The notes: generated by a model from the sequence alone, not told the origin. A DNA stretch of 64,000 nt from Gemmatimonadales bacterium (GCA_044449085.1 JBIOHR010000001.1:1134-65133), one strand, 5' to 3'; counted from the stretch's first letter, positions 27,724 to 44,547 are shown. Numbers and translations: made by a program.

Positions 27724-28583
27724 ACACGCGGAGGTTCGCCTCCAGCCTCCACCGTCTTGAGCAACTCCGCGCACCGCTTGCCCCATGGATTGAATTTGTT
27801 CGCCGAGAATCCGCGCTTCCACGCGTTCACCGCCTCATCCCGCTGGTCGTTGAACCAGTACGCCCGCCCCATCTCGAAGTAGGCCTCGATCAGGTTGGGC
27901 CCGAGCACGAGCGTCTTCTGGAAAAAGTTCTCTGCGTCCTCGTACATCTCGCGCTCGAGGTACACGAGGCCGAGGTAGAAATGTGCGTACAGCACCGCTT
28001 TCTTGTCGTTGTCGAGGCGAATGGCCTTGGAAAGGTGCTCGATCGCCTCGCCGAAAATCTTCTTCTTGAGGCAGATATACCCGACGTTGATGCGCGCGAG
28101 CGCGTTCGACGGCTCCCGCATCAGCACCTTGCCGAACGTGCCAAGCGCCTCGTCGTATTTCTCGTTGAGCATCTGCGCCCAGCCGAGCAGTGCCTCGCTC
28201 TGAGGGTCGCCGGGCGAGAGCTCGATCGCCTTGTTGAGGGCGGCCTCCGCTCCGTCGTAGTCCCCGAGCGACAGGCGGCTCCACCCCTTCTCGATGAACG
28301 TCGACGCGCCGATATGGTCTGCATGCACGACGGGCTTGTCCGCCGAAAATTGCGGGGCGAGCGAGGGCGCCGCGGCGGCCTGCTGCGCCTTCCACTTTTC
28401 CACAAGCAAGCGGATCTCTTCCTTGAGCGCCGCAAGGTCCGCCGTGGCCTGCTCGACGGTCTTGAACAGGCCGATGATCTCGACTTTTACGTTCGCGCGG
28501 TCGGCTTCGCCGAGGCCGGCGTCGAGCCGCCGGTTGATATCCGCGTATCGCGCGCGGAACTCGGCCAGCGTTTCATCAGGCAT
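27720..28583 (-). CDS. coiled-coil + TPR repeat protein
   Basis: 287 aa. N-terminal coiled coil (LAALKEEIRLLVEKWKAQQ), then about 5 TPR units (e.g. GDYDGAEAALNKAIELSPGDPQS, KYDEALGTFGKVLMREPSN). Overlaps the cheW stop by 8 nt. Confidence 0.85.
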   Translation of the reverse strand: MPDETLAEFRARYADINRRLDAGLGEADRANVKVEIIGLFKTVEQATADLAALKEEIRLLVEKWKAQQAAAAPSLAPQFSADKPVVHADHIGASTFIEKGWSRLSLGDYDGAEAALNKAIELSPGDPQSEALLGWAQMLNEKYDEALGTFGKVLMREPSNALARINVGYICLKKKIFGEAIEHLSKAIRLDNDKKAVLYAHFYLGLVYLEREMYEDAENFFQKTLVLGPNLIEAYFEMGRAYWFNDQRDEAVNAWKRGFSANKFNPWGKRCAELLKTVEAGGEPPRV

Positions 28584-29103
28584 CCGTCTTGGCCCCCGCC
28601 ACGGCTTGTTCGAGTACGATGCGTTCGCGCGCGGTGAGCAGCTGCGCGACGTCCAGGACGACGATCACGGGATCCTCCTCTGTCTTCGCGCGCACGAGGG
28701 CGCGCACGTACGGCTTTGCCAGGCCCTTGAACACCGGCGGCGGCGCCGAGAGGCGCGCCGAGGCGATCGTGACGACTTCGTCCACGCCGTCCACGATCGC
28801 GCCGATCCAGTCCTCACCGGCGACGACCACCAGGATGCGCGCACCGTCGCGGCGCGGCACCGGCGGGAGCTCGAAGCGCGCGCGCAAGTCGATCACCGGC
28901 ACCACGCGCCCGCCGTAGTCGATGACGCCCTCGAGCCACGCCGGCACGTTGGGAATCGGGCGCGGCGCCGCGTACCGCAGCACCCGCTCGACGGAAAAGA
29001 TGTCGGCGGCAAACAGGTCGTCGCCCACGCGGAAGGTGACGAGCTGCGTGCGGTCCGCGGGGGCCGCGTCGAGCGCGGGCCGTGGTCCCGAAGTTCTGGT
29101 CAT
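28576..29103 (-). CDS. cheW: chemotaxis coupling protein CheW
   Basis: The ATG at 29103 overlaps the upstream stop (ATGA). LVTFRVGDDLFAADIFSVERVLRY..PIPNVPAWLEGVIDYGGRVVPVIDLRARF is the CheW-domain core. 175 aa. Confidence 0.9.
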   Translation of the reverse strand: MTRTSGPRPALDAAPADRTQLVTFRVGDDLFAADIFSVERVLRYAAPRPIPNVPAWLEGVIDYGGRVVPVIDLRARFELPPVPRRDGARILVVVAGEDWIGAIVDGVDEVVTIASARLSAPPPVFKGLAKPYVRALVRAKTEEDPVIVVLDVAQLLTARERIVLEQAVAGAKTDA

Positions 29104-29567
29104 GACGCCATCCCGTCGACGAGAGTTCCGCTCCGCGACACCATCGCCGCGAGCGCATCCACGCGCACCACGTTCACCAGCGGGGTCCCCGCGCGGCCCA
29201 CGCGCCGCCGCGCACGAAACCAAATTCCGCTGAGCACACCGTCGGCATCCGCGCCCGGCGGCGTGGCGCGCACCTGGAGCGGTTCGATGCGGACCATCTC
29301 GGTCACGTCGTCGACCACCAGCGCGAAGCGGCGTTCACCGTCGCGCACGAGGAGTGCGGCACCGGCCGCGGCCGGTGCCGCGAAGCGGAACAGCCAGCCC
29401 GCATCCCACGCGCCAACCATGCGGCCGCGGTACGCCAGTTGGCCGAGCATGCCTTTCGGAACACCGGGCACCCACTCGATGACCGGAGCGTCGACGGCTT
29501 CCTCGACCTCGGAGGCCGGAAACGCGAAGTGCTCGCCGCCCACGCGCGCAATGATGTGCAGGCTCAT
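29100..29567 (-). CDS. cheW: CheW-like coupling protein (divergent)
   Basis: The ATG at 29567 overlaps the cheB stop (ATGA). MSLHIIARVGGEHFAFPASEVEEAVD...VPKGMLGQLAYRGRMVGAWDAG...ALVVDDVTEMVRI follows the CheW fold pattern. 155 aa. Confidence 0.8.
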   Translation of the reverse strand: MSLHIIARVGGEHFAFPASEVEEAVDAPVIEWVPGVPKGMLGQLAYRGRMVGAWDAGWLFRFAAPAAAGAALLVRDGERRFALVVDDVTEMVRIEPLQVRATPPGADADGVLSGIWFRARRRVGRAGTPLVNVVRVDALAAMVSRSGTLVDGMAS

Positions 29568-30685
29568 CGCGCGCTCCCCACCGCGCGACGCGCGCTCATG
29601 AGCGCCAGCACGGACGCCGCGACGCCGCCGAGCGGCGCGACGACGTCCGCGCCGGCGTGCACGAGCGCGGAGTGCGGCATGCCATAAATCGTCGCGGTTG
29701 CTCGGTCCTGCACGACGGCACCCCCGCCCGCGGCACGCACCGCCGCGAGGCCGGCGCTGCCGTCGCGTCCCATGCCGGTGAGGACCACGCCGGTGCACGC
29801 CGCACCGAAGTGTCTCGCGACGGACGCGAACAGCGGGTCGGCCGCGGGGCGTACGCCCCATACCGGCGCGGATTCGTCCAGCGCGATGCGGGCCTGCGCG
29901 CCGTCCGACGACACGGTCATGTGCTGGCCCCCCGGCGCGATGTAGACATGGTTCGCCAGCACGGCTTCCCCGTGCACCGCCTCGGACACCTCGAGCGACG
30001 ACATCCCATCGAGGCGCCGGGCGAGGCCGGCCGTGAAGCCGCGCGGCATGTGCTGCGCGACGAGCACCGCCGCCTCGAGTTCGCGCGTGAGCGCGGGCAC
30101 CACCTCAACGAGCGCACGGGGTCCGCCGGTGGACGCGGCAATCGCAACCGCGGCGCGCGCGCCGCGCGCCGAAATGCGCTCCCGGCCGGGCCCCGGCGAC
30201 AGGCGCGCCAGCATCGGCACGCCACGCAGATTGACGACGGCCGCGGCGCGGAGCGCCTCGTGCAGGCGTTCCGACATCGCCGGCATCGCCTCGCTAAACG
30301 CACCCGCTGGCTTGCGGACGAAATCGACCGCACCCAGCTCGAGCGCGCGGAGGGTGAGGTCGACCGCTCCACGGGCCTCGATGCCGCTCAGCATCACGAC
30401 GGCGCGCGGCGCCTCGCTCATGATGTACCCGAGTGCCGCGATGCCGTCGACCACCGGCATTTCGATGTCGAGCGTCACAATGTCGGGATCGAGCGCATGG
30501 ACCTTGGCGAGCGCGTCCATGCCGTCGCGGGCCGTGCCGATCACCGCGAAGTCGTCGAACCGCGCGATGAGGTCGCACACGACCTGCCGCACCAATGTGC
30601 TGTCGTCCACGACGAGCACCGTGCGCCGCGTGCCGCGCCCGGGGCCGCCAGCGCCGTCCGGCAGGCCCGATTCCCTAGAGGTCAC
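29564..30685 (-). CDS. cheB: chemotaxis response regulator protein-glutamate methylesterase CheB
   Basis: 373 aa, GTG start. Receiver domain VLVVDDSTLVRQ...PDIVTLDIEMPVVDG, followed by a methylesterase domain (AIAASTGGPRAL, HMPRGFT, LTGMGRDG). Confidence 0.93.
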   Translation of the reverse strand: MTSRESGLPDGAGGPGRGTRRTVLVVDDSTLVRQVVCDLIARFDDFAVIGTARDGMDALAKVHALDPDIVTLDIEMPVVDGIAALGYIMSEAPRAVVMLSGIEARGAVDLTLRALELGAVDFVRKPAGAFSEAMPAMSERLHEALRAAAVVNLRGVPMLARLSPGPGRERISARGARAAVAIAASTGGPRALVEVVPALTRELEAAVLVAQHMPRGFTAGLARRLDGMSSLEVSEAVHGEAVLANHVYIAPGGQHMTVSSDGAQARIALDESAPVWGVRPAADPLFASVARHFGAACTGVVLTGMGRDGSAGLAAVRAAGGGAVVQDRATATIYGMPHSALVHAGADVVAPLGGVAASVLALMSARRAVGSAR

Positions 30686-31151
30686 GTTCGCCTCCGCGCA
30701 CCGAGCGCACCTTTACCTGCCCCGTGAAGACGTCGAACGACACCGTCCGCCCGCTCTCCCCGCCAACGTCCTCGGCCAGCACCGGCACGCGCGCTGCCGC
30801 GAGCGCCGTGCGCGCGGCGGCGACGTTCCGGGCGCCCACCGATCCGCCGAACGCAAGCAGCGGCCCGAAGAGCGCGGCGCCGCCCACGAGCGCACCGGTC
30901 CACGGGCCCGCCGCGCCGAGTTCGCGCATCTCCTCGAGGAGCAGCGGCACGGCGCTCGAGGCGTAGCGCGCACGGTTCTCCACGGCGCGTCCGAGCGCGG
31001 CGTCGGGGAGCAGCACGTGCGCGAGTCCGCCGACTTTGGCGACGCGATCGTGGATCGTGATCGCCACGCAGGAGCCGAGGCCGATCGTCACGATCCGCGA
31101 GTGCCCCTTGGCGACCGCATGGTGTGCGATGCGCACGCGCAGCTCCGTCAC
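30675..31151 (-). CDS. cheD: chemoreceptor glutamine deamidase CheD
   Basis: 158 aa. The GTG start overlaps the cheR stop (GTGA). IVTIGLGSCVAITIHD..KVGGLAHVLLP is the CheD Cys/His active-site block. Confidence 0.9.
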   Translation of the reverse strand: MTELRVRIAHHAVAKGHSRIVTIGLGSCVAITIHDRVAKVGGLAHVLLPDAALGRAVENRARYASSAVPLLLEEMRELGAAGPWTGALVGGAALFGPLLAFGGSVGARNVAAARTALAAARVPVLAEDVGGESGRTVSFDVFTGQVKVRSVRGGERDL

Positions 31152-31975
31152 GGGCGCCGAAAGATGCGCTGCCGCGAGTCCACCGCGTCGAACAGCTTGC
31201 GCGACGGTCCCAGCAGGGTCTCGACTTTCCCGAGCACCAGATAGCCGCCCGGCGCGAGTGCGTCATGGAAGCGCCGCATGAGCGCGTCCTGCGACTCGCG
31301 GTCGAAATAGATGATCACGTTCCGGCAGGTGATCAAGTGCATCGCGTGCGGTGGCGGTGCCTCGAGCAGGAGGTCGCGGCGCTCGAACCGGATCAGCGAC
31401 CGGATCTCCGCGCCCGCCCGCCATTTTCCGGCGCCCGCCGGGACGAACCAGCGCTCGCGCAGCGCCGGCGGCGTCTCGGTGAACGACTCCGCGCCATAGG
31501 TCCCCGCCTCGGCCGCAGAGAGGCTGTCCCGGTCGATGTCGCTCGCCGTCACATGCACCCGCGACGCCGCGCCCGGCGTGCCGGCGCCGCCGCCCGCGGA
31601 TTCCATCCAGAGCGCCGCGAGCGTGTACGCCTCCTCGCCGGAGGCGCAGCCGGCGACCCAGCAATTCAACCGCGGCGCGGCGAGCGCGCGAAGCGCGGGC
31701 AGCACGGCCGTCGCGACGGCATCCCACGCTTCCGCATTGCGGAAGAGTTTGGTCACGTTCACGGTGAGCGCCGCGATCAGCCACTCGTATTCAGCGGGAT
31801 CGCTGTCGAGGAGCCGGCTGTACGACGCATAGTCGGCCGCGCCGCGGGCGCGCATGCGCACCGCGATGCGGCGCCGCATGCAGGTGTCCTTGTAATTCGC
31901 GACGCCAAAGCCGCGGTCGCGCGAGATCTTCGACGTCAGCGCAACGAAAGCGTCGTCGCCGCCCGTGTCGCTCAC
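31148..31975 (-). CDS. cheR: chemotaxis protein methyltransferase CheR
   Basis: The GTG at 31975 overlaps the upstream stop (GTGA). MRRRIAVRMRA, TVNVTKLFRN, WVAGCASGEEAYTLA and ITCRNVIIYF motifs. 275 aa with no TPR extension. Confidence 0.92.
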   Translation of the reverse strand: MSDTGGDDAFVALTSKISRDRGFGVANYKDTCMRRRIAVRMRARGAADYASYSRLLDSDPAEYEWLIAALTVNVTKLFRNAEAWDAVATAVLPALRALAAPRLNCWVAGCASGEEAYTLAALWMESAGGGAGTPGAASRVHVTASDIDRDSLSAAEAGTYGAESFTETPPALRERWFVPAGAGKWRAGAEIRSLIRFERRDLLLEAPPPHAMHLITCRNVIIYFDRESQDALMRRFHDALAPGGYLVLGKVETLLGPSRKLFDAVDSRQRIFRRP

Positions 31976-33591
31976 GACGCCGCCCGGGCCGCCTCGATGT
32001 TCTTGCGGGCCGTCTGGTTCCCGGGATCGAGCTGCAGCGCGCGCTCCCAGCACCGCACGGCATCATCGCGCTCGTTGCGCTTGAGCCGAATGTTCCCGAG
32101 CTTGAGCCAGACGTCCGGCCCGAGCATGTCGTTGAACTTCACGGCGCGCTGGTATGCGTCGAAGGCCTCGTCGAACATGCCGACGCGGTATTGCGCGTCG
32201 CCGATGTTCTTGTGCAGCTGCGCGATGCCCGCATCTTCCGAGACGCCGCGCTCCGCGGCCGCAAGCGCGTCCTTGTCCCGTCCGGCCCGCTCGAGCACGA
32301 CCGAAAGATTGTTGTGCAGCACGGCCGCGTGCGGATACGCCGCGGTGCCCTCCTCGAGCAGGCCGATCGCCTGCTCGGACTTCCCGCCGAGCGCGTAACA
32401 CAGCGCCGCGTAGTGAAACCACGCCGGTGACGGTGCGCGCCCCGAGTACAGCGGCCGCGCCGCGACGAAACTCGCCTCCGCCGCCGGAAGGTCGCCGTCG
32501 CGCAGCGCGAGCACGCCGAGCGACGTGTGCACGCGCGCGTCGCTTTCGCCGCCGCGCTTGATCGCTTCGACCAGGGCCTCGCGCGCCTTGGCGGGCTCGC
32601 CCTTCCGCTCGAAGGCGAACGCGAGGTTGTGCAGCACCGCGGGCGCCACCGCGCGCTGGTGCGCCGTATGCTCGAAGTCCGCCACCGCCTCGTCCCAGCG
32701 CGCGAGGCGCAGGTGCACGAGGCCGAGGAAGAACCGGGCCTGCATGTCGGTGGCGCGCAGGTCCACCACGCGGCGAAACTCGCGCTCGGCTTCGTCGAGC
32801 ATGCCGGTCTTGTAGAACGCCATGCCAAGGTTGCGGTGCTCCTCGACGCGCGCGTCCGGCGCAATCACATCCGGCGCGCGCGACTTTCCCACGCGATGCA
32901 GGAACCCGGCGGTGGAAAGCCCGTACAGCGCCTTGCCGACCTGGAACTCCACGAGGCCCGAGTCCTCGATGATCGCGGTCACGTCCCGCCGGCCGTCGAT
33001 CAGCGGGAGCAGCACCTGCTGTTCGGCGGTGAGTTTCGCGCCGCTCTCCTCGAGACGCTTGATGTCAATGTCGAAGACGATGTCGAACGATGGAATCTTC
33101 TTCTCGATGAGGCTCCACTCGTCCACCCGGCGCGCGCCCTCCAGCAACAGCGACTCCGGGTTGATCATCACGAGGAAGTCCTGCTCCTCTGGGCGGATGT
33201 CGCCCTCGAAGTTGAACGTCCCCTGCGTCCACGTGAACAGGAAGTAGACGGCCTCCTCGATTTGCAGCCGGATCTGGCTGTGCAGGTCCTCGCGCGAGAT
33301 GATGCGGAGGCCGACGAGGATTTCGCCGAGGCGCTTGTCGCGCTGTTTCTCCTGCGCGTCGATCGCCTCCTGCAGCTGTGACGGAGTGATCGCGCCGCTC
33401 TTGAGCAGGATGTCACCGAGGCGGTCGCGCCGGTTGACGATCGCCGCGTAACAGATGCGCCCCTTGTCGAAGTAGATCGAGCCGAAGTTGTTCCGGTGCG
33501 TGACCGACAGGCAGCCGGTTTTCTTCCCCATCGCGAGGAGCTGGAGCACGTCGGGGAGGCTCGCCTCCTTGAGGCTTCCCTTGATTGCCAT
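31972..33591 (-). CDS. PATAN/DUF4388 domain protein with C-terminal TPR repeats
   Basis: 539 aa. The N-terminus MAIKGSLKEASLPDVLQLLAMGKKTGCLSVT...GSIYFDKGRICYA...AVYFLFTWTQGTFNFE is the DUF4388 (PatA N-terminal type) signature with a helical insertion. The C-terminal half holds about 8 TPR units. Confidence 0.85.
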   Translation of the reverse strand: MAIKGSLKEASLPDVLQLLAMGKKTGCLSVTHRNNFGSIYFDKGRICYAAIVNRRDRLGDILLKSGAITPSQLQEAIDAQEKQRDKRLGEILVGLRIISREDLHSQIRLQIEEAVYFLFTWTQGTFNFEGDIRPEEQDFLVMINPESLLLEGARRVDEWSLIEKKIPSFDIVFDIDIKRLEESGAKLTAEQQVLLPLIDGRRDVTAIIEDSGLVEFQVGKALYGLSTAGFLHRVGKSRAPDVIAPDARVEEHRNLGMAFYKTGMLDEAEREFRRVVDLRATDMQARFFLGLVHLRLARWDEAVADFEHTAHQRAVAPAVLHNLAFAFERKGEPAKAREALVEAIKRGGESDARVHTSLGVLALRDGDLPAAEASFVAARPLYSGRAPSPAWFHYAALCYALGGKSEQAIGLLEEGTAAYPHAAVLHNNLSVVLERAGRDKDALAAAERGVSEDAGIAQLHKNIGDAQYRVGMFDEAFDAYQRAVKFNDMLGPDVWLKLGNIRLKRNERDDAVRCWERALQLDPGNQTARKNIEAARAAS

Positions 33592-35501
33592 CAGCGGAAA
33601 TCCTCAATCACGCGCGCGCCGACCTCGGGCCAGTCCCACACGATCTTCTCGGCGTCCATGAATGCGGGGTCGCGCTCGTCGTGGCGGCGCGCCGCCACGG
33701 GCACGCCCGCGTACGGGGTCGCGACGCCGAGTTCACTGCGCACGAGGGCCGCGTCGAGCGCCGTGCCCGCCGCATGCGCCACGGCGCCGAGCCGGTTCAC
33801 GATCCCGATAATTTCGCGCACGCTTTGCACCGGCTGCTGGCCGAGCAGGGTGAGCAGGTGCGCATCGGGCTCGCGCCCCGAGGCCACGAGGAACCGGGCG
33901 AAGAGCTTCTCGCGGAGGGTGCGATCCGGCGCCTGGATCTGCACCACGAGGCCGCCTTCGAAGCGCGAGCGCAGGCGAACCTCGAGGTCGGGGATCGCCG
34001 CGGGCGGCTGATCGCTCGTGAGCACCACCTGCTTCCCCGCCCCGACGATCTCGTTGAACAGGAGGAACAGCTCCTCCTGCGTCCGCTCCTTGTCCGCGAC
34101 GAACTGCACGTCGTCGATCATCAGCGCATCCACCGACCGGTAGCGCGCGCGCCAGCGCTCGACCGTCCCGCCCTGAATCGAGGCGATCAGCTCGTCGATG
34201 AACTGCTGCGCGTGCACGCACGCCACCACGAGCCTCGACCCGGGGGCCTGCACGAGCGCGTTGCCGATCGCGTGCAGGAGGTGCGTTTTCCCGACGCCGC
34301 TCACGCCGTGGATCAGCAGCGGGTTGTACTTCGCGCCCGGCGCCGCGATCACCGCGTCTGCGGCGTGCACGGCGAGCTGGTTCGACGTGCCGATTTCGTA
34401 CGCCTCGCGCGTGAACGCCGCGCTCGGCCCGGATGGCGGCGTCTCGCCGGCGAGTGCACGCTCCACGAGGTCTTCCGCGGCCGCCATCCGTTCCGGATCG
34501 CGAAACACGGGGTCGCTGCCGAGGGCGAGATCCACCTCGACCGCCGCGCGCTCGAGGTCGCGCAGGTGTTCGACGGCGGCGGTGAAGGTCGCGAGCAAGC
34601 CTGCGACGTCCGGCGCCTTCCGCAGCGTGAGCGCGCGCTCGAGCACCGCCGTGCGGTACCCTTCCCCGTTCCAGTACGCGATCGCCTCGCGGAGGCGCGC
34701 CTGCCACGACTCCACCTGCTGCTGCACCACCGTCGACACTTCGGAGAGGAAGCTCTCGAACTCGCCAGTCGGGCGGTCTGCCGGCGTCGGCCGCGCCGGC
34801 GTGCGCCGCGCCACGGCCTCCGCGGCTTCCTCCTCGGCGCTCAGCGACTTGGCGGCGACGAGGCGGTTGAGCGCGCCCTGCAGCGCGCGGACGTTGTTGA
34901 AATTGAATCGCGCGAGCTCCTCGAGCACGCCGGTCTTGAACTCGAGATGCCGCTCCTCGCAGTTCGCGCGCAGGATCGCCACGCGTGTTTCGTAGTCCGG
35001 AGCCGTGACGTCGACGATCAGTCCGCCCGAAAGGCGGCTGATCAGCCGTTCGTCAACGTCCGGAATTTCCGTGGGCGGGCGGTCGCTGGTGAGCATGACC
35101 TGGCCGCCCGCGGCCTGCATGCGCTCGAACAGCCGGAGGAACTCGGCCTGCGTTTCGCGGCGGCCCGTGAGAAATTGCACGTCGTCGATCAGCAGCAGCC
35201 CCACCCGCTCGTAGCGGCGCGAGAACGCGTCCATCTGCCCCGCCGACACGGAGGCATGCAGCTGCTCGACGAACTCGTCGAGCGACAGGTACTCCACCTC
35301 GAGCTGCGGCTGGAGCGCGGCCGCGAGGTGCCCGACCGCGGAGAGCAGGTGCGTCTTGCCAAGGCCGGTGCCGCCGTAGACGAACAGCGGGTTGTACACC
35401 GCGCCGGGCGACTCCGCCACGGCGCGCGCGGCCGCGACCGCCAGGCGGTTGCCTGTGCCGACGACGAGACTGTCGAACCGGAGGCGCGGGTCGAGCTGCA
35501 C
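33591..35501 (-). CDS. tandem DnaA-type AAA+ ATPase (two DnaA domain-III modules; no domain I/II, no domain IV)
   Basis: 636 aa, GTG start 2 nt after the mglA stop. Module 1 (aa 1-217): LDPRLRFDSLVVGTGNRLAVAAARAVAESPGAVYNPLFVYGGTGLGKTHLL, LLLIDDVQFL, VMLTSDRPP, DERLISRLSGGLIVDV.APDYETRVAIL, NVRALQGALNRL. Module 2 (aa 363-590): FTREAYEIGTSNQLAVHAA..PGAKYNPLLIHGVSGVGKTHLL, ALMIDDVQFV, VVLTSDQPP, EVRLRSRFEGGLVVQI.APD, SVREIIGIVNRL. These are the DnaA Walker A, Walker B, sensor 1, box VII and sensor 2 blocks, each present twice. No helix-turn-helix DnaA-box-binding C-terminus. Confidence 0.85.
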   Translation of the reverse strand: MQLDPRLRFDSLVVGTGNRLAVAAARAVAESPGAVYNPLFVYGGTGLGKTHLLSAVGHLAAALQPQLEVEYLSLDEFVEQLHASVSAGQMDAFSRRYERVGLLLIDDVQFLTGRRETQAEFLRLFERMQAAGGQVMLTSDRPPTEIPDVDERLISRLSGGLIVDVTAPDYETRVAILRANCEERHLEFKTGVLEELARFNFNNVRALQGALNRLVAAKSLSAEEEAAEAVARRTPARPTPADRPTGEFESFLSEVSTVVQQQVESWQARLREAIAYWNGEGYRTAVLERALTLRKAPDVAGLLATFTAAVEHLRDLERAAVEVDLALGSDPVFRDPERMAAAEDLVERALAGETPPSGPSAAFTREAYEIGTSNQLAVHAADAVIAAPGAKYNPLLIHGVSGVGKTHLLHAIGNALVQAPGSRLVVACVHAQQFIDELIASIQGGTVERWRARYRSVDALMIDDVQFVADKERTQEELFLLFNEIVGAGKQVVLTSDQPPAAIPDLEVRLRSRFEGGLVVQIQAPDRTLREKLFARFLVASGREPDAHLLTLLGQQPVQSVREIIGIVNRLGAVAHAAGTALDAALVRSELGVATPYAGVPVAARRHDERDPAFMDAEKIVWDWPEVGARVIEDFR

Positions 35502-35503
35502 GC

Positions 35504-36103
35504 TCAGACACCCCCGCCCGCGCTCAGTTTGCGAAGCACCTGCTCGCTCACCGCGCGGAGCGTCTCGAACACGCCCGGCCCGTGCAGCGCGTCGGCCCCG
35601 AAGGACGGAACGCCCCGGAAGTTGAGCTGCTCCTCGAGTTCTGCCTCGGGGAGAATGAGGTCCGCAGGGAGGTCCCGCTTGTTGTACTGGATGACGAGCG
35701 GCACGGTGCGCGTGTCCACGCCGTACTCGGCGAGGTTCGCGTGCAGGTCTTGCATCGATTCGACGTTCTCGTCGAGTTGCCTGGCCTGGCTGTCTGCCAC
35801 GAACACCACCCCATCGGCCCCCTGCAGCACAAGGCGGCGCGTCGTCTGGTAATACACCTGGCCTGGCACCGTGTAGAGCTGGAAGCGCGTCGTGAAGCCC
35901 GAGATGATCCCGAGGTCGAGCGGAAGGAAATCAAAGAAGAGCGTGCGGTCGGTCTGCGTCGCGAGCGACACCATCTGGCCTTTTCGGTCGCCCGGAACCT
36001 GGCCGTAAATGTAATGGAGGTTCGTCGTCTTCCCCGACCGGCCGGGCCCGTAGTAGACGATCTTGCAGGTAATCTCACGCGCCGCGTAGTTGACGAGGGA
36101 CAT
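35504..36103 (-). CDS. mglA: Ras-like polarity GTPase MglA
   Basis: The track ORF is over-extended to 36628. The ATG at 36103 gives MSLVNYAAREITCKIVYYGPGRSGKTTNLHYIY...TDRTLFFDFLPL...FQLYTVPGQVYY...VVFVADSQ...VIQYNKRDL. This is near-colinear with Myxococcus MglA as I recall it (P-loop, switch-I Arg, PGQ switch II, NKRD). 199 aa. Confidence 0.92.
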   Translation of the reverse strand: MSLVNYAAREITCKIVYYGPGRSGKTTNLHYIYGQVPGDRKGQMVSLATQTDRTLFFDFLPLDLGIISGFTTRFQLYTVPGQVYYQTTRRLVLQGADGVVFVADSQARQLDENVESMQDLHANLAEYGVDTRTVPLVIQYNKRDLPADLILPEAELEEQLNFRGVPSFGADALHGPGVFETLRAVSEQVLRKLSAGGGV

Positions 36104-36573
36104 CAGGCGCGCCCGAACATCACGGCGAGGTTTCGGTTGAGTTCGCGCTCGAAGTCGTCTCCGAGCGCGGCGGACACCGGTGTGGTCGCGGGCACGATCG
36201 TCGCGACGTTCGCACAGAACTCGGCGAAGTACAGCTGCACGAGGCCGAGCGAACTCTCGTCGTCGAACACCGCGAGCAGGATCAGCGAACCGGCCGCCGT
36301 CGGCACCCGTCCGAGAAATATCTGCCGGATCTTGCCGGCGTAGTGGAGCCCGGCGAACGGCTTCCCGTTCACCTGGCGCCCGAGCTCCGCGGACGAGGCG
36401 GTGGTCGCCGCGGCCAGGGCGCACGCGGTCATCACGTCGACAGACCGCGCGAACCCGAATTGCCCCAGCACCTGGCCGCTCGGGTTGAGCAGCACCGCAA
36501 GCTGTACGCGCGCCTCGTCCACGAATTGCTTCAGCGGCGCCTCGACCCAGTTTTCCGCGACCGAAAGTTTCAT
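36103..36573 (-). CDS. mglB: Roadblock/LC7 protein, MglB-like GAP partner
   Basis: The ATG at 36573 overlaps the upstream stop (ATGA). 156 aa. LAVLLNPSGQVLGQFG...LILLAVFDDESSLGLVQLYFAEF matches the MglB block VVLVVIFDNRTSLGLVRLRIKK. It sits immediately upstream of mglA, as in the mglBA operon. Confidence 0.85.
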   Translation of the reverse strand: MKLSVAENWVEAPLKQFVDEARVQLAVLLNPSGQVLGQFGFARSVDVMTACALAAATTASSAELGRQVNGKPFAGLHYAGKIRQIFLGRVPTAAGSLILLAVFDDESSLGLVQLYFAEFCANVATIVPATTPVSAALGDDFERELNRNLAVMFGRA

Positions 36574-36917
36574 GCGATCGACTCCAGCGCCTTGAGCAGC
36601 TCGACGCGCAGCAGCCCCACATTCGCACGCGGCTCCGCCACGACGACGATCACGAGGTCGTCGCGGCCCGCCGCGCACATGCGCCCGCCCTCCGCGTCGA
36701 GCTCGAAGAAACCCGTCGAGCCGAATCCGGCTGCGCCCGCCGCGCGGCGGGCCTTCCGGTACAGCGACGCGGTCAGGGCGGCGAACGCGTCGCCGTTCAC
36801 GCCGATCTGCAGGCTCGAGTCGACGATCATGCCGTCCGCTTCACCCACCACCATACAGCCCGTCACGCCGCGGTGGCGGATGAGCGACGCCAGCAGCGTA
36901 CTGAACGGGCTGGTCAT
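36570..36917 (-). CDS. Roadblock/LC7 domain protein (MglB/MglC paralogue)
   Basis: The ATG at 36917 overlaps the upstream stop (ATGA). 115 aa. VTGCMVVGEADGMIVDSSL...AAGRDDLVIVVVAEPRANVGLLRVEL follows the single-domain Roadblock pattern. Confidence 0.8.
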   Translation of the reverse strand: MTSPFSTLLASLIRHRGVTGCMVVGEADGMIVDSSLQIGVNGDAFAALTASLYRKARRAAGAAGFGSTGFFELDAEGGRMCAAGRDDLVIVVVAEPRANVGLLRVELLKALESIA

Positions 36918-37726
36918 GCGCGCCACCCCATCCATTCGTTGGCGCGATCGAGCGACCGCTCCAGCAGGCGCCGCACGTACCCGAGAGGGACGCTGCGCGG
37001 CGCGGCCACGAGGAGCACGCCTCCGCCGCCCGGGGCCATGGCGACGCTCGCCATGTCCGCCTCGAAGACAATCTGGCGCCAGCGGCCCAGCCCGAGATGG
37101 CGCATGGCGCGGTTGGCCTCGTCGCTCACGCCCGAGAGCTGCGCACCGATGTCCGCGCCGAGGTCGCGTCCGTCTTCCGTGCGGTACTCGCCGGCCACGA
37201 CGTAGCCATCGGCGTCGAGCAGGATCGCCGTCTGCGCGGCGTCGCCGAGCACGTCGTGGAACAGCGTGCGCGCGTCGACCATGCGTGCGGGCTCGGTCGG
37301 CGCCTCCTCGATCGGCCTGCCGTCGGCCTGCGACGCGCGCACCGTGTCGAGTGCCGCCGAGAGCGACTGATCGGCCGGGTCCGCGGCGAGCGCGGCACCA
37401 AGATAGCGCGCGGCCTCGTCGAGATCGCCCTGCTGGAAGCACAGAAAACCCAGCCCCTTCTGCGCGCCCCCGTGTCCCGGCGCCAGCGCGAGGACCGATT
37501 CCCATTCATCGCGGGCGCGCGCGAAATCGCCGCGGTCGATCGCGATGCGCGCGACGAGGTCGTGCGCGTCCGCGCGCTGCGCATGCCGCTCCAGTCCCCG
37601 GGTCGCGACGCGCCACGCAAGTTCGAGCTGACCAAGCCGCCGGAGCGCCTCGCCCAGCTGCACGAACACGATGCTCGACGGATCCGCGGCGAGCGTCTCG
37701 CTGAGCGTGCGGATGTCGTCACTCAT
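36914..37726 (-). CDS. TPR + Roadblock/LC7 fusion protein
   Basis: The ATG at 37726 overlaps the upstream stop (ATGA). 270 aa. The N-terminal 130 aa or so are TPR-like (GDFARARDEWESVLALAPGH, GDLDEAARYLGAALAADPAD). The C-terminal part, AILLDADGYVVAGEY...IVFEADMASVAMAPGGGGVLLVAAPRSVPLGYV, is Roadblock-type. Confidence 0.8.
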   Translation of the reverse strand: MSDDIRTLSETLAADPSSIVFVQLGEALRRLGQLELAWRVATRGLERHAQRADAHDLVARIAIDRGDFARARDEWESVLALAPGHGGAQKGLGFLCFQQGDLDEAARYLGAALAADPADQSLSAALDTVRASQADGRPIEEAPTEPARMVDARTLFHDVLGDAAQTAILLDADGYVVAGEYRTEDGRDLGADIGAQLSGVSDEANRAMRHLGLGRWRQIVFEADMASVAMAPGGGGVLLVAAPRSVPLGYVRRLLERSLDRANEWMGWRA

Positions 37727-38796
37727 GCGGGTGCGCCTCCACCGGGCCTGCGCGGGAGTGCGTTTGCGCCGCCCTGCGCTGGGTACCTCGCCTCGACGAG
37801 CGCGCGGAGCCTCGCCGCGGACTCGAGGCCGTCGCGCACGCGTCCGGTCATGTCGTGCCGCGGATGCGCCTGCAGCCACGTGGCCCATGACCCCACCGCG
37901 CTCTGGAAGTCACCGCGGAGCACGTACTGGAACCCGCGCTCGAGGTCGTCGGCACCGTCGGCGACCGGCGGCGGCGGGACGGCGAGCGGTGCGACCACCG
38001 GCGTCGGCACGTCGGCCACCGCGCGCGTGCCGATCGGCGGCGTTGGCGCACGCGCGGCGACCCGCTCGGCCACCGAAGGCGGAACCACGAGCTCCACCAC
38101 GCCCGTGCTCACGAGACCGTACACGACCTTCGCCGTGTCGAACTCCGTGCGCGCGAGCTGCGATGCGATCGCGCGCAGGTCGAGCGAGCCGTCGATCATC
38201 GTGAGCACCTCCCACTCACTCGGCAGGAGGTCGAGCATCGGCGCGTGCTGGTCGTCCTTCAGCGACGCGAGGCGGGGGATGGCGAGAAGGCTCGGCACGC
38301 GGTCGGAGATGCGCGACCACTCGTCGATGCGGCGCGCGCCCTCCATGAGCAGCGCCTCGGTGCCGATCTGCACCATCGGGTCGCCGTCCATCGCGCCTTC
38401 CTCAAAACGGAAGAAACCCTCGCGCCACGACAGCAGTTCGAAGATGACCGCCTCGATCTGGAGGCGCACCTGGCGCTCGAGTTCCTTTTGCGAGATCGCG
38501 CCCATCTCGAGCAGGATCTCACCGAGGCGGCGGCTGTCGCCGCGTTCCTTCTGCGCGGCGCTCGCCGCCGCCACCTGGGCGGCGGTGACGCGGCCTGTCC
38601 GCATCAGGAGATCGCCGAGGCGGTGCGGATTGCTCCGGATCGCCGCCGCTACGACCCTGCCATTCTGGAAGTGGACCGTCCCCTCGTTGTCGCGCAGCTC
38701 GGAGGTGACGGCAAGCGTTCCCGTCTTCCGGCTCAGGTCGAGAAGCTGGAAGACGTCGTGGATCCCGAGTTCGCGGAGCGGCCCTTCGATCGCCAT
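37723..38796 (-). CDS. PATAN/DUF4388 domain protein
   Basis: 357 aa. MAIEGPLRELGIHDVFQLLDLSRKTGTLAVT...GTVHFQNGRVVAA...VIFELLSWREGFFRFEE is a second copy of the DUF4388 signature, with the same helical insert (RLGEILLEMGAISQKELERQ). The Pro/Ala-rich C-terminus has no TPR. Confidence 0.85.
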   Translation of the reverse strand: MAIEGPLRELGIHDVFQLLDLSRKTGTLAVTSELRDNEGTVHFQNGRVVAAAIRSNPHRLGDLLMRTGRVTAAQVAAASAAQKERGDSRRLGEILLEMGAISQKELERQVRLQIEAVIFELLSWREGFFRFEEGAMDGDPMVQIGTEALLMEGARRIDEWSRISDRVPSLLAIPRLASLKDDQHAPMLDLLPSEWEVLTMIDGSLDLRAIASQLARTEFDTAKVVYGLVSTGVVELVVPPSVAERVAARAPTPPIGTRAVADVPTPVVAPLAVPPPPVADGADDLERGFQYVLRGDFQSAVGSWATWLQAHPRHDMTGRVRDGLESAARLRALVEARYPAQGGANALPRRPGGGAPA

Positions 38797-38798
38797 GG

Positions 38799-41522
38799 TC
38801 AGTGCCCTCCGAGGCGGCTGCCGAACACCGTCAGCAGGTCTTCGGCCGACCGCATCTCGCGGCGGGCACGCCGCGCGTAGTCACCCGCCGGCTCGAGTTC
38901 GATGACGCGGTGCCACCGCGCGATCGCCTCGCGATAGCGCTTCTGCGCGGCGAGGATGGCGCCGTCGTAGAACGTCGCGCCTGCGTGGTCGGGATCGAAC
39001 GCGAGCACGCGACGGAACGCCCTCGCGGCATCCGCGGGCCGGCTGAGCTCGATGAGCGTCTCGCCGAGCGCGATGTGTCCGTCAAAGTTGTAGGAGTCCC
39101 GCTGCAGCAGGTCGACGAGCAGGCTCACCGCCTCGCGCTGCTGGCCCGTGAGGCGGCGCAGCGTCGCGAGCTCGAGCGTCGCCTCCGCGTACGTCGGCAC
39201 CGCGTCGAGCGCGGCGACGAGTTCCTGCTCCGCTTCGCGCCACAGATGGCGCTGCATCAGGAGGCGCGCCAGATCGAAGCGCACGGCGGCGAAATCGGCG
39301 TCGAGCGCGAGCGCGTCGCGGTACGCGCGAATCGCGCCGTCGACGTCCCCGAGCGACCGCGTGATGTTGCCGGTCCAGCGGAGCACGTCCGCGCGCTCCG
39401 GCGCGAGCGCGCGCGCCGCGTCGAGGGCTTCGAGGGCCGCCGCGGGATCACCGGCCTCGAACCGGCACGTCGCCACGAGCATCAGCGCGTCGACGTCGTT
39501 CGGCACGGCAATGAGCACCTGCTCGGCGATCTCGCGCGCTTCCGCACCGCGGCCGAGGAGGAGCAGCGTCTGCGCCTCGCCGCGCCGCGCCCGCAGGTGC
39601 CACGGGTTCGCCGCGAGCGCCGCACGGTACTTCTCGAGTGCATCGCCGAACGCGCCCTGCCGGCACAGGATGTCGCCGAGCAGCGCGTTCCCCTCCGCCT
39701 CGTCGGCGCCCCGCAGGATGGCCCGGCTCGCCTCCGCCATCGCGCGGTCGTAGAGGCCCGTCGAGAGGTAATCGGCGGCCATCGTGAACGCGTCGGCCTC
39801 CACCATCACCGGCGGCGGCGGTTCAGGGGGCGGCGCGAGCTCGCTGAACAGCGATTCGAGCAGCCTCGGGTCGAACGTGAAGCTCTCGACTTCGCCGCTC
39901 GTGCGCTGCTCGCCGCCGAGGTCCGGCACGACCGAGAGGTCGGGGTCTTCGTACTCGAGGTCGATGGCCAGCGCGAATTTCTGCGGCACGTAATAGGGGT
40001 CGATCTCGAGCGCGCGCTTCGTTTCGCGCAGCGCGCCTTCGTGGTCCCCCAGGTTCGAGAGCGTGAAGCTCAGGTTGTAGTGCGCCTCGGCAAAGCGCGG
40101 CCGCGCCTGGATCGCGCGCGCGAAGCTGTTTCGCGCCTCCTCGAACTTGCGCAATTCCCCGAGCACGAGGCCGACGCCGTTCCAGGCGAGCGGGCTCTCC
40201 GGCTCCGTGACGAGCACCTGCTTGTACGCCTCGAGCGCGAGCTGGAAGCGGCGGCTCTTGGTGAGCAGCAACCCGAGGTTCAGCCGCGCCTTCACGAAGC
40301 CGGCGTTCGCTCCGAGGGCGTCGCGGAAGGCGTCCACGGCACGCTCGCGTTCGCCCGCGTGGTACAGTGCGACGCCGAGATTGTTGTGCGCAATCGCATA
40401 CAGCGGATCGGCCTCGAGCGAGCGGCGGTAGTTCTCCGCCGCCTCGGTGAAGCGGCCATCCTGGTGCTCCGCCACGCCGCGCTCGTTCCAGAGCTTCGGG
40501 CTGTCCGGCGTCTCGCGCAGGAGGCTGTCGTAGAGCGCGATGGCGGCCGCGGGATCCTTGCGCAGAATGTGCACTTCCGCCATCGCCTGCAGCACGAGCG
40601 CGCGGTCCTCGCCGCGCTCGAGCGCGAGTTGGTACTCGCGCTGCGCCTCCGAGTAGTACCCTTTCTGCCGGAACGCGAGGCCGAGGTTGTAGTGCGCGAG
40701 CTGGCCGCCCTCCGCCACCTGCATCATGCGCGCGGAACGCCGTTCATGCGGGCCCGGCGCGAGCTCGGCGTACTTCTCCGGGTTGTACTGGTCGAGCGAG
40801 AGGTTCGCCTGCGCGCGCGACAGCGTCGGGTTGAGGTGCACCGCGCGCTTGCTCGCCGCGGCCGCGTCCTCGTGGCGCCCCATGTCGCCGTAGACGAAGC
40901 TCAGCAGGAAAAGGGCGTCGGGGTTCTCGGGGTTCAGCTCGATCGCGCGCTTGAGCGCGTCGAGTGCCTCCTCCATGCGCCCCTGGTTGTAGAGAACTTC
41001 GCCGAGATAGAAGCGCGTGACCGAGCTGGCGGAATCGAGCCGGATGGCCTCTTCGAACCAGTGCTGAGCGGCCCCGAGGTTGCCGCCGGCCTTCTCCGCG
41101 AGACCGAGCTGCACGACGGCACCCAAATCGTTGGGATGATGCCGCAGCAGCGCCGTGAACTCCGCCACCGCGTCCTCGGACTGGCCGAGCAGCGCGTACG
41201 CGCGGCCGAGTTCCCAGCGTGCGTCGCGATCGTCCACGCGAAAGCGCAGCTTCTCGCGCAGTTCCGCGATGCGACGGTCGTAGTACCCCGTGTTGAAGTA
41301 GGCGACTTCGAGGTTGCGCTGCGCGACCTGCATCTTGGGGTCGAGCTCGAGCGCCTTCGTGAACGCGGCGGCCGCCTCCTCGTAGAGTCCCTTGTTGTAG
41401 TAGAGGACGCCGAGGTTGTTGTGTGCGCCGGCATCGGACGGATCGATGCGCCGCGCGAACGACTTGAGCGTGTCGCGGTCGCGGTCGGAGGCGAGCGGGG
41501 CGGACACGGGATGCTCAGCCAA
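38799..41522 (-). CDS. large all-TPR scaffold protein (about 900 aa)
   Basis: 907 aa from the TTG at 41522 (8-nt overlap with cheC). The alternative GTG at 41507 lies 8 nt after the cheC stop. More than 20 recognisable TPR units (AHNNLGVLYYNKGLYEEAAAAFTKALELDP, AHYNLGLAFRQKGYYSEAQREYQLALE, and so on). Confidence 0.88.
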   Translation of the reverse strand: MAEHPVSAPLASDRDRDTLKSFARRIDPSDAGAHNNLGVLYYNKGLYEEAAAAFTKALELDPKMQVAQRNLEVAYFNTGYYDRRIAELREKLRFRVDDRDARWELGRAYALLGQSEDAVAEFTALLRHHPNDLGAVVQLGLAEKAGGNLGAAQHWFEEAIRLDSASSVTRFYLGEVLYNQGRMEEALDALKRAIELNPENPDALFLLSFVYGDMGRHEDAAAASKRAVHLNPTLSRAQANLSLDQYNPEKYAELAPGPHERRSARMMQVAEGGQLAHYNLGLAFRQKGYYSEAQREYQLALERGEDRALVLQAMAEVHILRKDPAAAIALYDSLLRETPDSPKLWNERGVAEHQDGRFTEAAENYRRSLEADPLYAIAHNNLGVALYHAGERERAVDAFRDALGANAGFVKARLNLGLLLTKSRRFQLALEAYKQVLVTEPESPLAWNGVGLVLGELRKFEEARNSFARAIQARPRFAEAHYNLSFTLSNLGDHEGALRETKRALEIDPYYVPQKFALAIDLEYEDPDLSVVPDLGGEQRTSGEVESFTFDPRLLESLFSELAPPPEPPPPVMVEADAFTMAADYLSTGLYDRAMAEASRAILRGADEAEGNALLGDILCRQGAFGDALEKYRAALAANPWHLRARRGEAQTLLLLGRGAEAREIAEQVLIAVPNDVDALMLVATCRFEAGDPAAALEALDAARALAPERADVLRWTGNITRSLGDVDGAIRAYRDALALDADFAAVRFDLARLLMQRHLWREAEQELVAALDAVPTYAEATLELATLRRLTGQQREAVSLLVDLLQRDSYNFDGHIALGETLIELSRPADAARAFRRVLAFDPDHAGATFYDGAILAAQKRYREAIARWHRVIELEPAGDYARRARREMRSAEDLLTVFGSRLGGH

Positions 41523-42129: not shown

Positions 42130-42131
42130 CG

Positions 42132-44093: not shown

Positions 44094-44141
44094 CGTCTGC
44101 GTCCGTTACGTCGGTGACACGTTCGGCGGGCGGCCGCGCGC

Positions 44142-44504
44142 TCAGCCGAGCACGCGCTGGACTGCCTCCAGCACGCGGCTCGGCTGGAAGGGCTTGACGA
44201 CGAAGTCCTTCGCTCCCGCCTGTATCGCCTCGACGACGAGCGCCTGCTGCCCCATCGCGCTGCACATCAGCACCTTCGCCTCGGGGTCGAAGCGCGTGAT
44301 CTCGCGCACCGCGTCGATGCCGCCCATGTCCGGCATGACGATGTCCATCGTCACGAGGTCAGGGCGAAGCTGCTTGTAGCGCTCGACCGCCTGCGCGCCG
44401 GTCTCCGCCTCGCCGACCACCTCGAAGCCCGCCTGCTGCAGGATGTCGCTGACCATCGTCCGCATGAAGATCGCGTCATCGCAAATGAGCACCGTAGGAG
44501 CCAC
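44142..44504 (-). CDS. cheY: chemotaxis response regulator CheY
   Basis: 120-aa single receiver domain. VLICDDAIFMR, LVTMDIVMPDMGG, and CSAMGQ..AGAKDFVVKPF. Confidence 0.95.
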   Translation of the reverse strand: MAPTVLICDDAIFMRTMVSDILQQAGFEVVGEAETGAQAVERYKQLRPDLVTMDIVMPDMGGIDAVREITRFDPEAKVLMCSAMGQQALVVEAIQAGAKDFVVKPFQPSRVLEAVQRVLG

Positions 44505-44547
44505 CGTACCCTCGCACAGAAAGAGTGATCGCGTGCCGCAACGCCGC

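Follow-up and report, generated by a model that had tools for sequence, protein, structure and literature searches.

The locus considered here raises the question of what a DnaA-like ATPase does directly after mglA, in an operon for polarity and chemosensory proteins. The window, by which we mean the whole stretch of 64,000 nucleotides analyzed from a Gemmatimonadales (Gemmatimonadota) soil bacterium, carries the gene at positions 33591..35501 on the minus strand (ORF list), with a GTG start, a stop codon at 33591-33593 and a product of 636 amino acids, hereafter the twin protein. A protein 100% identical to it is found in a Gemmatimonadales MAG (P0001), and the GC3 value of the gene is 0.92. 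We found no paper that describes this family of twin DnaA modules, and a full-text search of the literature recovered no paper tying MglA or PATAN proteins to a DnaA-like ATPase.

The two AAA+ modules and their ATP sites

The twin protein contains two complete DnaA domain III AAA+ modules and lacks DnaA domains I and IV, in agreement with the original prediction of two tandem DnaA-type modules. Two stretches match the Bac_DnaA model in Pfam (PF00308, E 2e-105), no Pfam match to DnaA_N or Bac_DnaA_C was obtained in the twin protein, and its start corresponds to the first residues of DnaA domain III. Searches with tblastn of the window and 28 related loci were negative for domain I (DnaA_N), and seven domain IV sequences used as queries recovered no domain IV in any frame.

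Module 1 (residues 3-219; 34845..35495, minus strand) was delimited by profile, alignment and structure match, and module 2 (residues 359-591; 33729..34427, minus strand) by profile and alignment; the two are 42% identical. Module 1 aligns without gaps to residues 111-337 of B. subtilis DnaA (8bv3/8btg, E about 1e-59), with an rmsd of 1.8 A to domain III in Foldseek, and there is no alignment gap in the modules at the position of the initiator-specific helical insert. The DnaA profile TIGR00362 gives 271 bits for module 1 and 236 bits for module 2, as compared to 89 and 75 bits for the Hda profile TIGR03420, which scores the whole protein at 157.7 bits (cut-off 194.8). The placement of both modules in the DnaA clade, rather than in another AAA+ clade, is thus supported by DnaA profiles scoring best. 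The AF2 monomer model has a pTM of only 0.48, and the relative placement of the two modules in it is without confidence.

The motifs named in the original prediction were all located in both modules in an alignment with 27 homologs. In module 1 these are Walker A K49/T50, Walker B D106/D107, the sensor 1 residue D140, box VII R152/R156 and the sensor 2 residue R205, and the corresponding residues in module 2 are K405/T406, D463/D464, D497, R509/R513 and R562. Invariant among the 27 homologs are K49/K405, D106-D107/D463-D464, D140/D497, R152 and R156/R509 and R513, and R562, while R205 is kept except in one homolog with a deletion. Across 311 family members, each module keeps its ATP-site residues in about 87-98% of cases, including the Walker A lysine (96% in module 1, 95% in module 2), the two Walker B aspartates (98% and 96% for module 1, 96% and 93% for module 2), the arginine finger (90% and 87%) and the sensor 2 arginine (88% and 90%). 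Both ATP sites thus look catalytically competent. The sensor 1 aspartate, which is present in the twin protein itself, is variable in the family (60% in module 1, 48% in module 2), and hydrolysis may therefore be slow or absent in many members.

A conserved family with a middle domain and a C-terminal peptide

The gene had been called an orphan, which does not hold: several hundred relatives of about 630-700 amino acids share the same architecture down to about 31% identity, and every relative with an organism name belongs to the Gemmatimonadota. It had also been anticipated that automated annotation would label the protein as the chromosomal replication initiator. This is true of the JGI/IMG records, which use the name "chromosomal replication initiator protein", and the two modules taken together pass the NCBIfam cut-off, but NCBI names the relatives "DnaA/Hda family protein" or "DnaA ATPase domain-containing protein". 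In neighbor-joining trees, which have moderate support only, the module 1 sequences group in one clade (bootstrap 0.72) and those of module 2 in another (0.76); on the question of duplication versus fusion, this topology indicates that a single ancient duplication gave rise to the twin modules.

The stretch between the modules had been described as a linker of about 145 amino acids. Such a stretch exists, but only about 25 residues of it are variable, namely a Pro/Ala-rich linker at residues 220-245 or thereabouts (34767..34844, minus strand), recognized from alignment gaps that reflect its differing length among the homologs, with pLDDT values below 50 at residues 223-247 in AF2. The remainder is a family-specific helical middle domain of about 105 amino acids (residues about 246-352; 34446..34766, minus strand), as defined by the alignment and an AF2 sub-model in which it is entirely helical with a pLDDT of 87. 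In the 27-sequence alignment it is conserved to the same degree as the modules, with invariant residues F248, F251, E264, W266, R269, W277-x-G-x-G-Y282, R289-A-L291 and F333-R-D-P336. No relative of this domain could be detected: Pfam gave no match, and Foldseek returned no fold match in the PDB (best E 6). We also considered whether it might be a DnaA domain IV, and rejected this on an hhalign probability of 0.4% and the lack of a Foldseek match.

The claim that the C-terminal residues contain no domain IV was upheld; they are, however, not featureless. A conserved Trp-rich, acidic peptide at residues 611-636 (D..F.D.EK.VW.WP....R.IE..R; 33594..33671, minus strand) was identified by alignment and has six invariant residues in the 27 sequences (D616, E618, W622, W624, R630, E633), and the motif EK.VW.WP....R.IEE.R recurs throughout the family down to about 31% identity. 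Residues 595-636 have pLDDT values below 50 in AF2, and the C-terminal tail is predicted to be flexible. Neither the whole stretch between the modules nor the C-terminal 65 amino acids gave a Pfam match even at E<=10, and Pfam, tblastn and, for the middle domain, Foldseek and hhalign were all negative for a cryptic helix-turn-helix domain IV.

The operon around mglA

The gene directly upstream (35504..36103, minus strand) encodes a genuine MglA of 199 amino acids, which matches M. xanthus MglA from end to end (E 5.5e-74). Both junctions of the twin gene are as originally read: a 2-nt gap separates it from mglA (TGA-GC-GTG), and its stop codon shares one base with the start of the next gene (TGATG), which encodes a PATAN-TPR protein of 539 amino acids (31972..33591, minus strand; Pfam DUF4388 and TPR) with an MshE-type c-di-GMP motif (NF053729, 51.3 bits versus a cut-off of 38). 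The genes for CheR, CheD, CheB and CheW follow downstream (28576..32053, minus strand), as assigned from ORFs, synteny and, for CheW, Pfam; CheR and CheD are annotated by Pfam in the more distant locus L022.

Upstream of mglA, and with a stop codon that overlaps its start, lies a gene for a conserved protein of 156 amino acids (orf156; 36103..36573, minus strand), which has no Pfam or NCBIfam match and is kept in 19 of 21 genome loci, with a counterpart of 153 amino acids at the same position in L022. It is preceded by a Roadblock/LC7 (MglB-like) gene with a 115-aa product (36570..36917, minus strand; Pfam Robl_LC7, E 1.7e-6), for which L022 has a 114-aa Robl_LC7 counterpart, and by a gene for a fusion of TPR and Roadblock/LC7 domains (36914..37726, minus strand; Pfam TPR and Robl_LC7). 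The longest ORF for the fusion protein extends to 37888, but translation probably begins at 37726, with a start that overlaps the stop of a gene for a PATAN protein of 357 amino acids (37723..38796, minus strand; DUF4388, E 3.9e-34), which also carries the MshE-type motif (NF053729, 40.1 bits versus 38). Further upstream are genes for a 907-aa TPR protein (38799..41522, minus strand; Pfam) and for CheW, CheY, CheA and CheC/CheX (41515..45030, minus strand; Pfam), the latter in the same order in L022. Adjoining genes overlap or are separated by no more than 2 nt, which suggests co-translation.

The order TPR907, PATAN, TPR-Roadblock, orf156, MglA, twin gene, PATAN-TPR, CheR, CheD, CheB was recovered in 21 Gemmatimonadaceae loci, scored wherever the contig reaches far enough, and is maintained in L022. 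The predicted co-occurrence with mglA stood in all 20 informative Gemmatimonadaceae loci, where mglA is directly upstream of the twin gene, as well as in L023 and in L022, whose twin protein is 33% identical to ours. It did not extend to the deeper lineages L025, in which a Roadblock gene is present but no mglA is adjacent, and L027, in which neither is adjacent; with these exceptions, operon-level co-location with mglA and Roadblock/MglB genes is conserved. Given these two lineages, the association with MglA may be restricted to certain lineages. The PATAN-TPR gene is directly downstream in L001-L019, L021, L022 and L025, while in L027 a homolog of the 907-aa TPR protein (867 aa; 29% identity over 783 aa, E 2e-89) is encoded directly upstream. 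A TPR-containing neighbor was present in every lineage examined, L025 and L027 included.

Possible roles and relation to known systems

It appears that an ATPase of the replication type has been co-opted for signaling in this operon. As a joint reading, to which we give even odds, the twin protein would be a non-initiator DnaA paralog that assembles in an ATP-dependent manner and serves as a switch or scaffold within the MglA/Roadblock-PATAN-TPR-Che module. Because both ATP sites look competent and the box VII arginine finger is kept in each module, ATP binding would be expected to drive head-to-tail contacts between modules as in DnaA, whether these belong to one chain or to different chains. 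Docking onto the PATAN-TPR and 907-aa TPR proteins might be the task of the middle domain and the C-terminal peptide, an idea drawn from gene adjacency and from the C-terminal peptide, which we take to resemble EEVD-type C-terminal TPR ligands. The twin protein would then work within the MglA/Roadblock-PATAN-Che module for polarity and chemosensing and would not open replication origins. ATPase activity, oligomerization, docking to TPR proteins and a functional link to MglA are what we infer from these data. The gene does not appear to be at a replication origin; DnaA boxes are not in excess in the window (3 observed versus 1.7 expected), and the cumulative GC skew is monotonic across it, with no inflection.

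A role in replication control, similar to that of Hda, is unlikely to account for the family, but several features are in line with it. The twin protein would co-assemble into oligomers with the genuine DnaA through its AAA+ faces and arginine fingers; the joint claim, which is equally unlikely, is that it caps or inactivates DnaA-ATP and so links the initiation of replication to polarity, cell division or the chemosensory state. Compared with Hda, the modules are much nearer to DnaA, as seen from the gapless alignment of module 1 and the TIGR00362 scores, the box VII arginines are conserved, and the cluster is located between DivIVA and the dcw division cluster both in the window and in L022, although the adjacency to dcw is weak evidence. 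Hda binds the beta clamp with a QL[SP]LPL-like motif. No such motif is present at the N-terminus of the twin protein (M[QR]LD.RLRFD), which is the start of DnaA domain III (LNP.YTFD) and in which Q2 is not conserved. The conserved neighbors are polarity and signaling proteins rather than replication genes, and the closest canonical DnaAs are from unrelated phyla, which gives no hint that the protein co-evolved with the DnaA of its host.

It is improbable that the protein forms a filament on single-stranded DNA or RNA, with a DnaA-like ssDNA pore in module 2 that serves DNA uptake via type IV pili or polar anchoring of the nucleoid. Module 2 nevertheless has K471-E-R473 where E. coli DnaA has K243-E-R245, and a hydrophobic residue at the V211 position; these E. 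coli residues bind ssDNA. In module 2 of the family members, the R245 position is Arg in 81%, the V211 position Ile or Val in 53% and the K243 position Lys in 47%, which leaves room for a nucleic-acid role, and L026, a locus from another organism, encodes fusions of DnaA modules with MshEN in a type IV pilus gene cluster. However, module 1 has His/Arg and Glu/Asp at the same positions, the module 2 residues may have been kept for structural reasons, the window contains no pilus or competence genes, and in the trees the L026 modules group with neither the module 1 nor the module 2 clade.

That the twin protein is the real chromosomal replication initiator, unusually built, is extremely improbable. 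The whole protein scores above the NCBIfam equivalog cut-off for DnaA (TIGR00362, 503 versus 343.9 bits) and JGI annotates its relatives as initiators, but this score is the sum of the two modules, each of which alone falls below the cut-off. Domains I and IV were not found in any frame of the window or of the 28 related loci, the window has neither a DnaA-box cluster nor a skew inflection, the gene shares its operon with those for MglA, PATAN and Che proteins and not with dnaN, recF or gyrB, and the equivalent slot in G. aurantiaca T-27 adjoins GAU_1409, a mid-range locus tag. A mobile-element helper ATPase (IstB/DnaC-like) or defense NTPase that is in the operon by chance is effectively ruled out by the conserved chromosomal position. 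The weak secondary matches to IstB_IS21 and STAND-type NTPase models score far below DnaA, synteny is fixed throughout the phylum with no transposase or defense genes nearby, and the base composition of the gene is that of its surroundings.

The putative switch or scaffold can be set against several known systems. DnaA provides the best profile and structure matches, and each module corresponds to its entire domain III, core and lid, and carries the Walker A, Walker B, sensor 1, box VII arginine and sensor 2 elements. In contrast to DnaA, the twin protein lacks domains I/II (helicase and DiaA contacts) and IV (the helix-turn-helix that binds DnaA boxes), has the module in duplicate together with an extra helical domain and C-terminal peptide, and has its gene in an operon for polarity and chemosensory proteins rather than at an origin. 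Hda/HdaA likewise has a DnaA-family AAA+ module with an arginine finger and no domain IV, and Hda is a regulator and not an initiator, but it is a single module of about 230 amino acids with an N-terminal clamp-binding motif. Two AAA+ modules per polypeptide are also found in the tandem type II proteins p97/Cdc48, NSF and ClpB; these are, however, stacked closed hexamers of the classic clade, whereas the twin modules belong to the initiator clade, and the resemblance is generic (TM about 0.3, 14-16% identity). Modules of the DnaA clade form open spirals.

The MshEN-DnaA-module fusions in L026 also combine two domain III modules without domain IV, and their c-di-GMP-binding MshEN domain parallels the MshE-type motif of the PATAN neighbors here, but they have no middle domain or C-terminal motif in common with the twin protein, their first module has degenerated and their modules are set apart by long coiled coils. 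None of the M. xanthus MglA partners (MglB, MglC, RomR-RomX, SgmX, FrzS) is an AAA+ ATPase, but they resemble the twin protein in being encoded with or acting on MglA, and the Myxococcus Roadblock and TPR proteins and the Frz chemosensory system have their counterparts in the operon of the twin gene.

Architecture of the twin protein

In the window, which was annotated by means of GC3-based gene calls and Pfam, the twin gene covers positions 33591-35501 on the minus strand, starts with GTG and codes for a protein of 636 amino acids, with a GC3 value of 0.92 that is similar to those of its neighbours. The open reading frame and the two-module architecture proposed in the original prediction were both borne out: two Bac_DnaA (PF00308) stretches were identified in Pfam (E = 2e-105), as expected from the profile search that had been suggested, with zero matches to DnaA_N and zero to Bac_DnaA_C. 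The NCBIfam equivalog model for DnaA, TIGR00362, also matches the protein twice, each time from profile position 103 on, which is the start of domain III. Module 1 (residues 3-219) gives a gapless alignment to residues 111-337 of DnaA from B. subtilis (E ~1e-59), module 1 and module 2 (residues 359-591) are 42% identical over 202 residues, and the full-length structural model superimposes on domain III of the B. subtilis protein at 1.8 A rmsd.

The segment of about 145 residues between the modules, previously described as a linker, is present but is not a mere linker. It consists of about 25 variable Pro/Ala-rich residues and a strongly conserved helical domain of about 105 residues (the middle domain, residues ~246-352), in which the residues that are invariant in an alignment of 27 sequences include W266, W277-x-G-x-G-Y282 and F333-R-D-P336. 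The AlphaFold2 pLDDT of this domain is 87 when it is modelled alone and about 85-90 inside the full-length model. Pfam gave no match to it at E<=10, a Foldseek comparison of its model with the PDB gave no fold match (best E 6), and a profile-profile alignment to DnaA domain IV with hhalign yielded a probability of only 0.4%. A cryptic domain IV was rejected on these three results and on a negative tblastn search, in agreement with the original claim that the protein lacks this domain. The C-terminus (residues 611-636) is a conserved peptide, ..D.EK.VW.WP....R.IE..R, in which D616, E618, W622, W624, R630 and E633 are invariant across the 27 sequences. The peptide is predicted by AlphaFold2 to be flexible, and its motif is recognisable at the extreme C-terminus in nearly all distant relatives.

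A protein family in the Gemmatimonadota

The protein had been called an orphan, which does not hold, since many full-length relatives were recovered and the named ones are all from Gemmatimonadota. An exact-sequence look-up of the twin protein and of the related protein P0001 returned no record, and a word-indexed search identified P0001, from a Gemmatimonadales MAG, as 100% identical to the twin protein. All of the 120 matches listed in that search are relatives of about 570-690 amino acids or fragments, with 59-100% identity. An exhaustive phmmer search of representatives clustered at 50% identity added dozens of further full-length relatives with identities as low as about 31%, and searches seeded with two distant members produced further ones. 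Every match with a named organism belongs to the Gemmatimonadota (Gemmatimonadaceae, Gemmatimonadales, Longimicrobiales or "Gemmatimonadetes bacterium"), and the most divergent query, P0163, with which a wider taxonomic range was tested, again gave named matches from this phylum without exception.

In a neighbour-joining tree of the modules, all first modules of the proteins that carry the C-terminal motif group in a single clade (bootstrap 0.72) and all second modules group in another (0.76). Since there is one clade per module position, the duplication appears to have occurred once, before the radiation of the family. That the modules are a recent copy of the host dnaA was rejected because the module clades are family-wide and the best-scoring canonical DnaA proteins are from unrelated phyla (Terrybacteria, Dehalococcoidales).

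Tandem DnaA-module proteins found elsewhere are independent of this family. One of them, P0193 (L029:583-2604), is a protein of 673 amino acids that contains two tandem DnaA modules and a Bac_DnaA_C domain, and in the tree each of its modules is most closely related to the other, which indicates an independent duplication inside a DnaA-like protein. Another locus (L026:2681-13179), from an organism with 63% GC, encodes proteins of 921 and 1876 amino acids in which an MshEN c-di-GMP-binding domain is fused to a pair of DnaA domain III modules with long coiled coils between them. They are adjoined by a single DnaA module of 246 amino acids and surrounded by prepilin peptidase and PilB-like genes of a type IV pilus cluster, and the fusions look like a separate recruitment of DnaA modules.

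A polarity and chemosensory operon

All 40 confidently called genes in positions 1-64000 of the window are on the minus strand, the cumulative GC skew falls steadily, and the twin gene is part of a long co-directional block. The block begins with genes for DivIVA, a PNP-family phosphorylase, IleRS, a DksA-like protein, LspA and an RluD-like synthase, followed by CheW, CheY, CheA and CheC/X, and then by a 907-aa TPR protein, PATAN, TPR-Roadblock, Roadblock, orf156, MglA, the twin gene and PATAN-TPR. Next are CheR, CheD, CheB and CheW, a TPR protein, a Peptidase_MA_2 protein and a second TPR protein, and the block ends in the dcw division cluster, RsmH through FtsA. The che genes are split around the MglA block (28576-45030, minus strand), and no gene for a methyl-accepting chemoreceptor was identified among the called window genes scanned with Pfam. 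The polarity and che cluster is placed between DivIVA...IleRS-LspA-RluD and the dcw genes (RsmH, FtsI, MurE, MurF, MraY, FtsW, MurC, FtsA), and the same flanking is seen in a related locus, L022. A single perfect DnaA box, TTATCCACA, is located in the dcw region at 9680-9688 on the plus strand, just upstream of the FtsA gene (9748-11013).

The gene that precedes the twin gene is a true mglA, whose product matches MglA of M. xanthus over its full length (E = 5.5e-74). Both junctions of the twin gene are as originally claimed: the mglA stop codon is separated from the GTG by the dinucleotide GC, and the TGA of the twin gene shares a base with the ATG of the gene for PATAN-TPR (539 aa) in TGATG. 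Each junction examined from the gene for the 357-aa PATAN protein (PATAN357) to PATAN-TPR is overlapping or at most 2 nt wide, and the twin gene is probably co-translated with its tightly packed neighbours mglA and PATAN-TPR.

The Roadblock/LC7 (MglB-like) gene for 115 aa (36570-36917, minus strand) was hidden among longer spurious reading frames in this high-GC region; it overlaps the TPR-Roadblock stop with its start, and with its stop the start of orf156. The latter (36103-36573, minus strand), directly upstream of mglA, encodes a conserved 156-aa protein with zero Pfam or NCBIfam matches, which most of the related loci encode in this position as well (153 aa in L022). The idea that it is a diverged Roadblock protein was supported neither by BLASTP against the neighbouring Roadblock domain nor by Pfam. 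Both PATAN (DUF4388) proteins match NF053729, the NCBIfam model of an MshE-related c-di-GMP-binding motif (cut-off 38 bits), PATAN-TPR at 33277-33423 with 51.3 bits and PATAN357 at 38473-38622 with 40.1 bits, both on the minus strand. Since these matches exceed the cut-off and sit within the PATAN helical insert, the two proteins may be c-di-GMP receptors.

Across 21 Gemmatimonadaceae genome loci, the genes from that for the 907-aa TPR protein through cheB keep their order wherever the contig reaches, and each of the 20 informative loci has mglA immediately upstream of the twin gene. The suggested co-occurrence with mglA extends to L022, where the twin protein is only 33% identical and the operon is identical in order, but not to two other lineages. 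On a 3.6-Mb contig (L025:9470-13802), Roadblock, the twin gene and PATAN-TPR alone are left, in an unchanged chromosomal position behind the RluD-like gene, with no mglA and no che genes at the locus; module 2 has lost a recognisable lid in this lineage. In a Gemmatimonadota MAG with 49% GC (L027:1765-10094), the twin gene comes immediately after a gene whose 867-aa product is homologous to the 907-aa TPR protein (29% identity, E = 2e-89), with neither MglA nor PATAN near it; a bactofilin gene pair is located a few genes upstream. MglA is thus a constant neighbour within two large lineages, and the contexts in L025 and L027 leave a TPR-containing protein as the sole constant neighbour of the twin gene.

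A survey of prokaryotic Ras-like GTPases lists GAU_1409 of G. aurantiaca with the neighbourhood "PATAN>MglA>-PATAN>", in which an unnamed gene, undiscussed in the paper, occupies exactly the slot of the twin gene (PMC4316618). Full-text searches identified no paper that links MglA or PATAN to a DnaA-like ATPase, and the family is undescribed in the literature searched.

Possible functions of the twin protein

Conservation of the ATP sites was counted over 311 two-module members of the family. The residues are retained in module 1 and module 2, respectively, at the following frequencies: the Walker A Lys (96% and 95%), the first (98% and 96%) and second (96% and 93%) Walker B Asp, the Box VII arginine finger (90% and 87%) and the sensor 2 Arg (88% and 90%), followed by the sensor 1 Asp (60% and 48%). 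The twin protein of the window has all of them in both modules. The interpretation offered in the original prediction is supported in part. Most likely, the twin protein is a non-initiator DnaA paralogue that switches or assembles via ATP-dependent module contacts. As a proposal for the mechanism, these contacts would be mediated by the arginine fingers, within one chain or between chains, and the middle domain and the C-terminal peptide would bind the neighbouring TPR proteins and thereby hold the twin protein in a polarity/chemosensory complex. An acidic C-terminal peptide beside TPR proteins recalls TPR ligands of the EEVD type, which offers a lead.

A less likely rival explanation is that the twin protein regulates DnaA in the manner of Hda. 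Scored apart, modules 1 and 2 reach 271 and 236 bits with the DnaA model and 89 and 75 bits with the Hda model, and membership in Hda was rejected on these scores and the lack of a clamp motif. Either module alone misses the DnaA cut-off of 343.9 bits but their sum of 503 passes it, which explains the JGI/IMG name "chromosomal replication initiator protein". The mislabelling anticipated in the original prediction is thus found in JGI/IMG, where it affects hundreds of relatives and can mislead origin prediction and marker-gene analyses, but not at NCBI, where relatives are named "DnaA/Hda family protein" or "DnaA ATPase domain-containing protein".

Another such rival is a filament on single-stranded nucleic acid, formed via module 2. 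At the positions of V211, K243 and R245 in E. coli DnaA, which bind single-stranded DNA, module 2 has Ile or Val in 53%, Lys in 47% and Arg in 81% of the 311 proteins; in module 1, His or Arg and Glu or Asp are found there.

A reading that we consider unlikely is that the twin protein, as an ATP switch derived from DnaA, forms a physical link between the state of the chromosome or its replication and cell polarity. Module 2 would then bind single-stranded DNA or genuine DnaA, and the TPR and PATAN (c-di-GMP-binding) partners of MglA would be contacted through the middle domain and the C-terminal peptide, such that in Gemmatimonadota replication status would gate polarity, budding/division or reversals of motility, or would be gated by them. 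That the twin protein is the real chromosomal initiator is very unlikely given that domains I and IV are missing, that the operon partners speak against it, and that the window, in which a replication origin was rejected, has neither an excess of DnaA boxes (3 with at most one mismatch versus 1.7 expected) nor a GC-skew inflection.

What is unusual is a tandem DnaA-type form that lacks every DNA-recognition domain, is conserved across a single phylum and is encoded by a gene packed between those for the polarity GTPase MglA and a PATAN-TPR protein with a c-di-GMP-binding motif. If the preferred reading of a non-initiator switch is true, it provides a testable candidate for a link between polarity and chemosensing, and possibly the cell cycle as well, in a phylum that has received little study. 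The twin family, conserved across that phylum, belongs to an already known kind, the DnaA/Hda-family AAA+ proteins, for which the tandem architecture, the two conserved elements and the cellular context are new. To our knowledge, AAA+ modules of the DnaA type have been described almost exclusively in proteins that initiate replication or control its initiation (DnaA, Hda) and in helicase loading, and the MglA/MglB polarity switch has so far been described as purely a system of GTPase, GAP and GEF, to which the twin protein would add an ATP-driven component.
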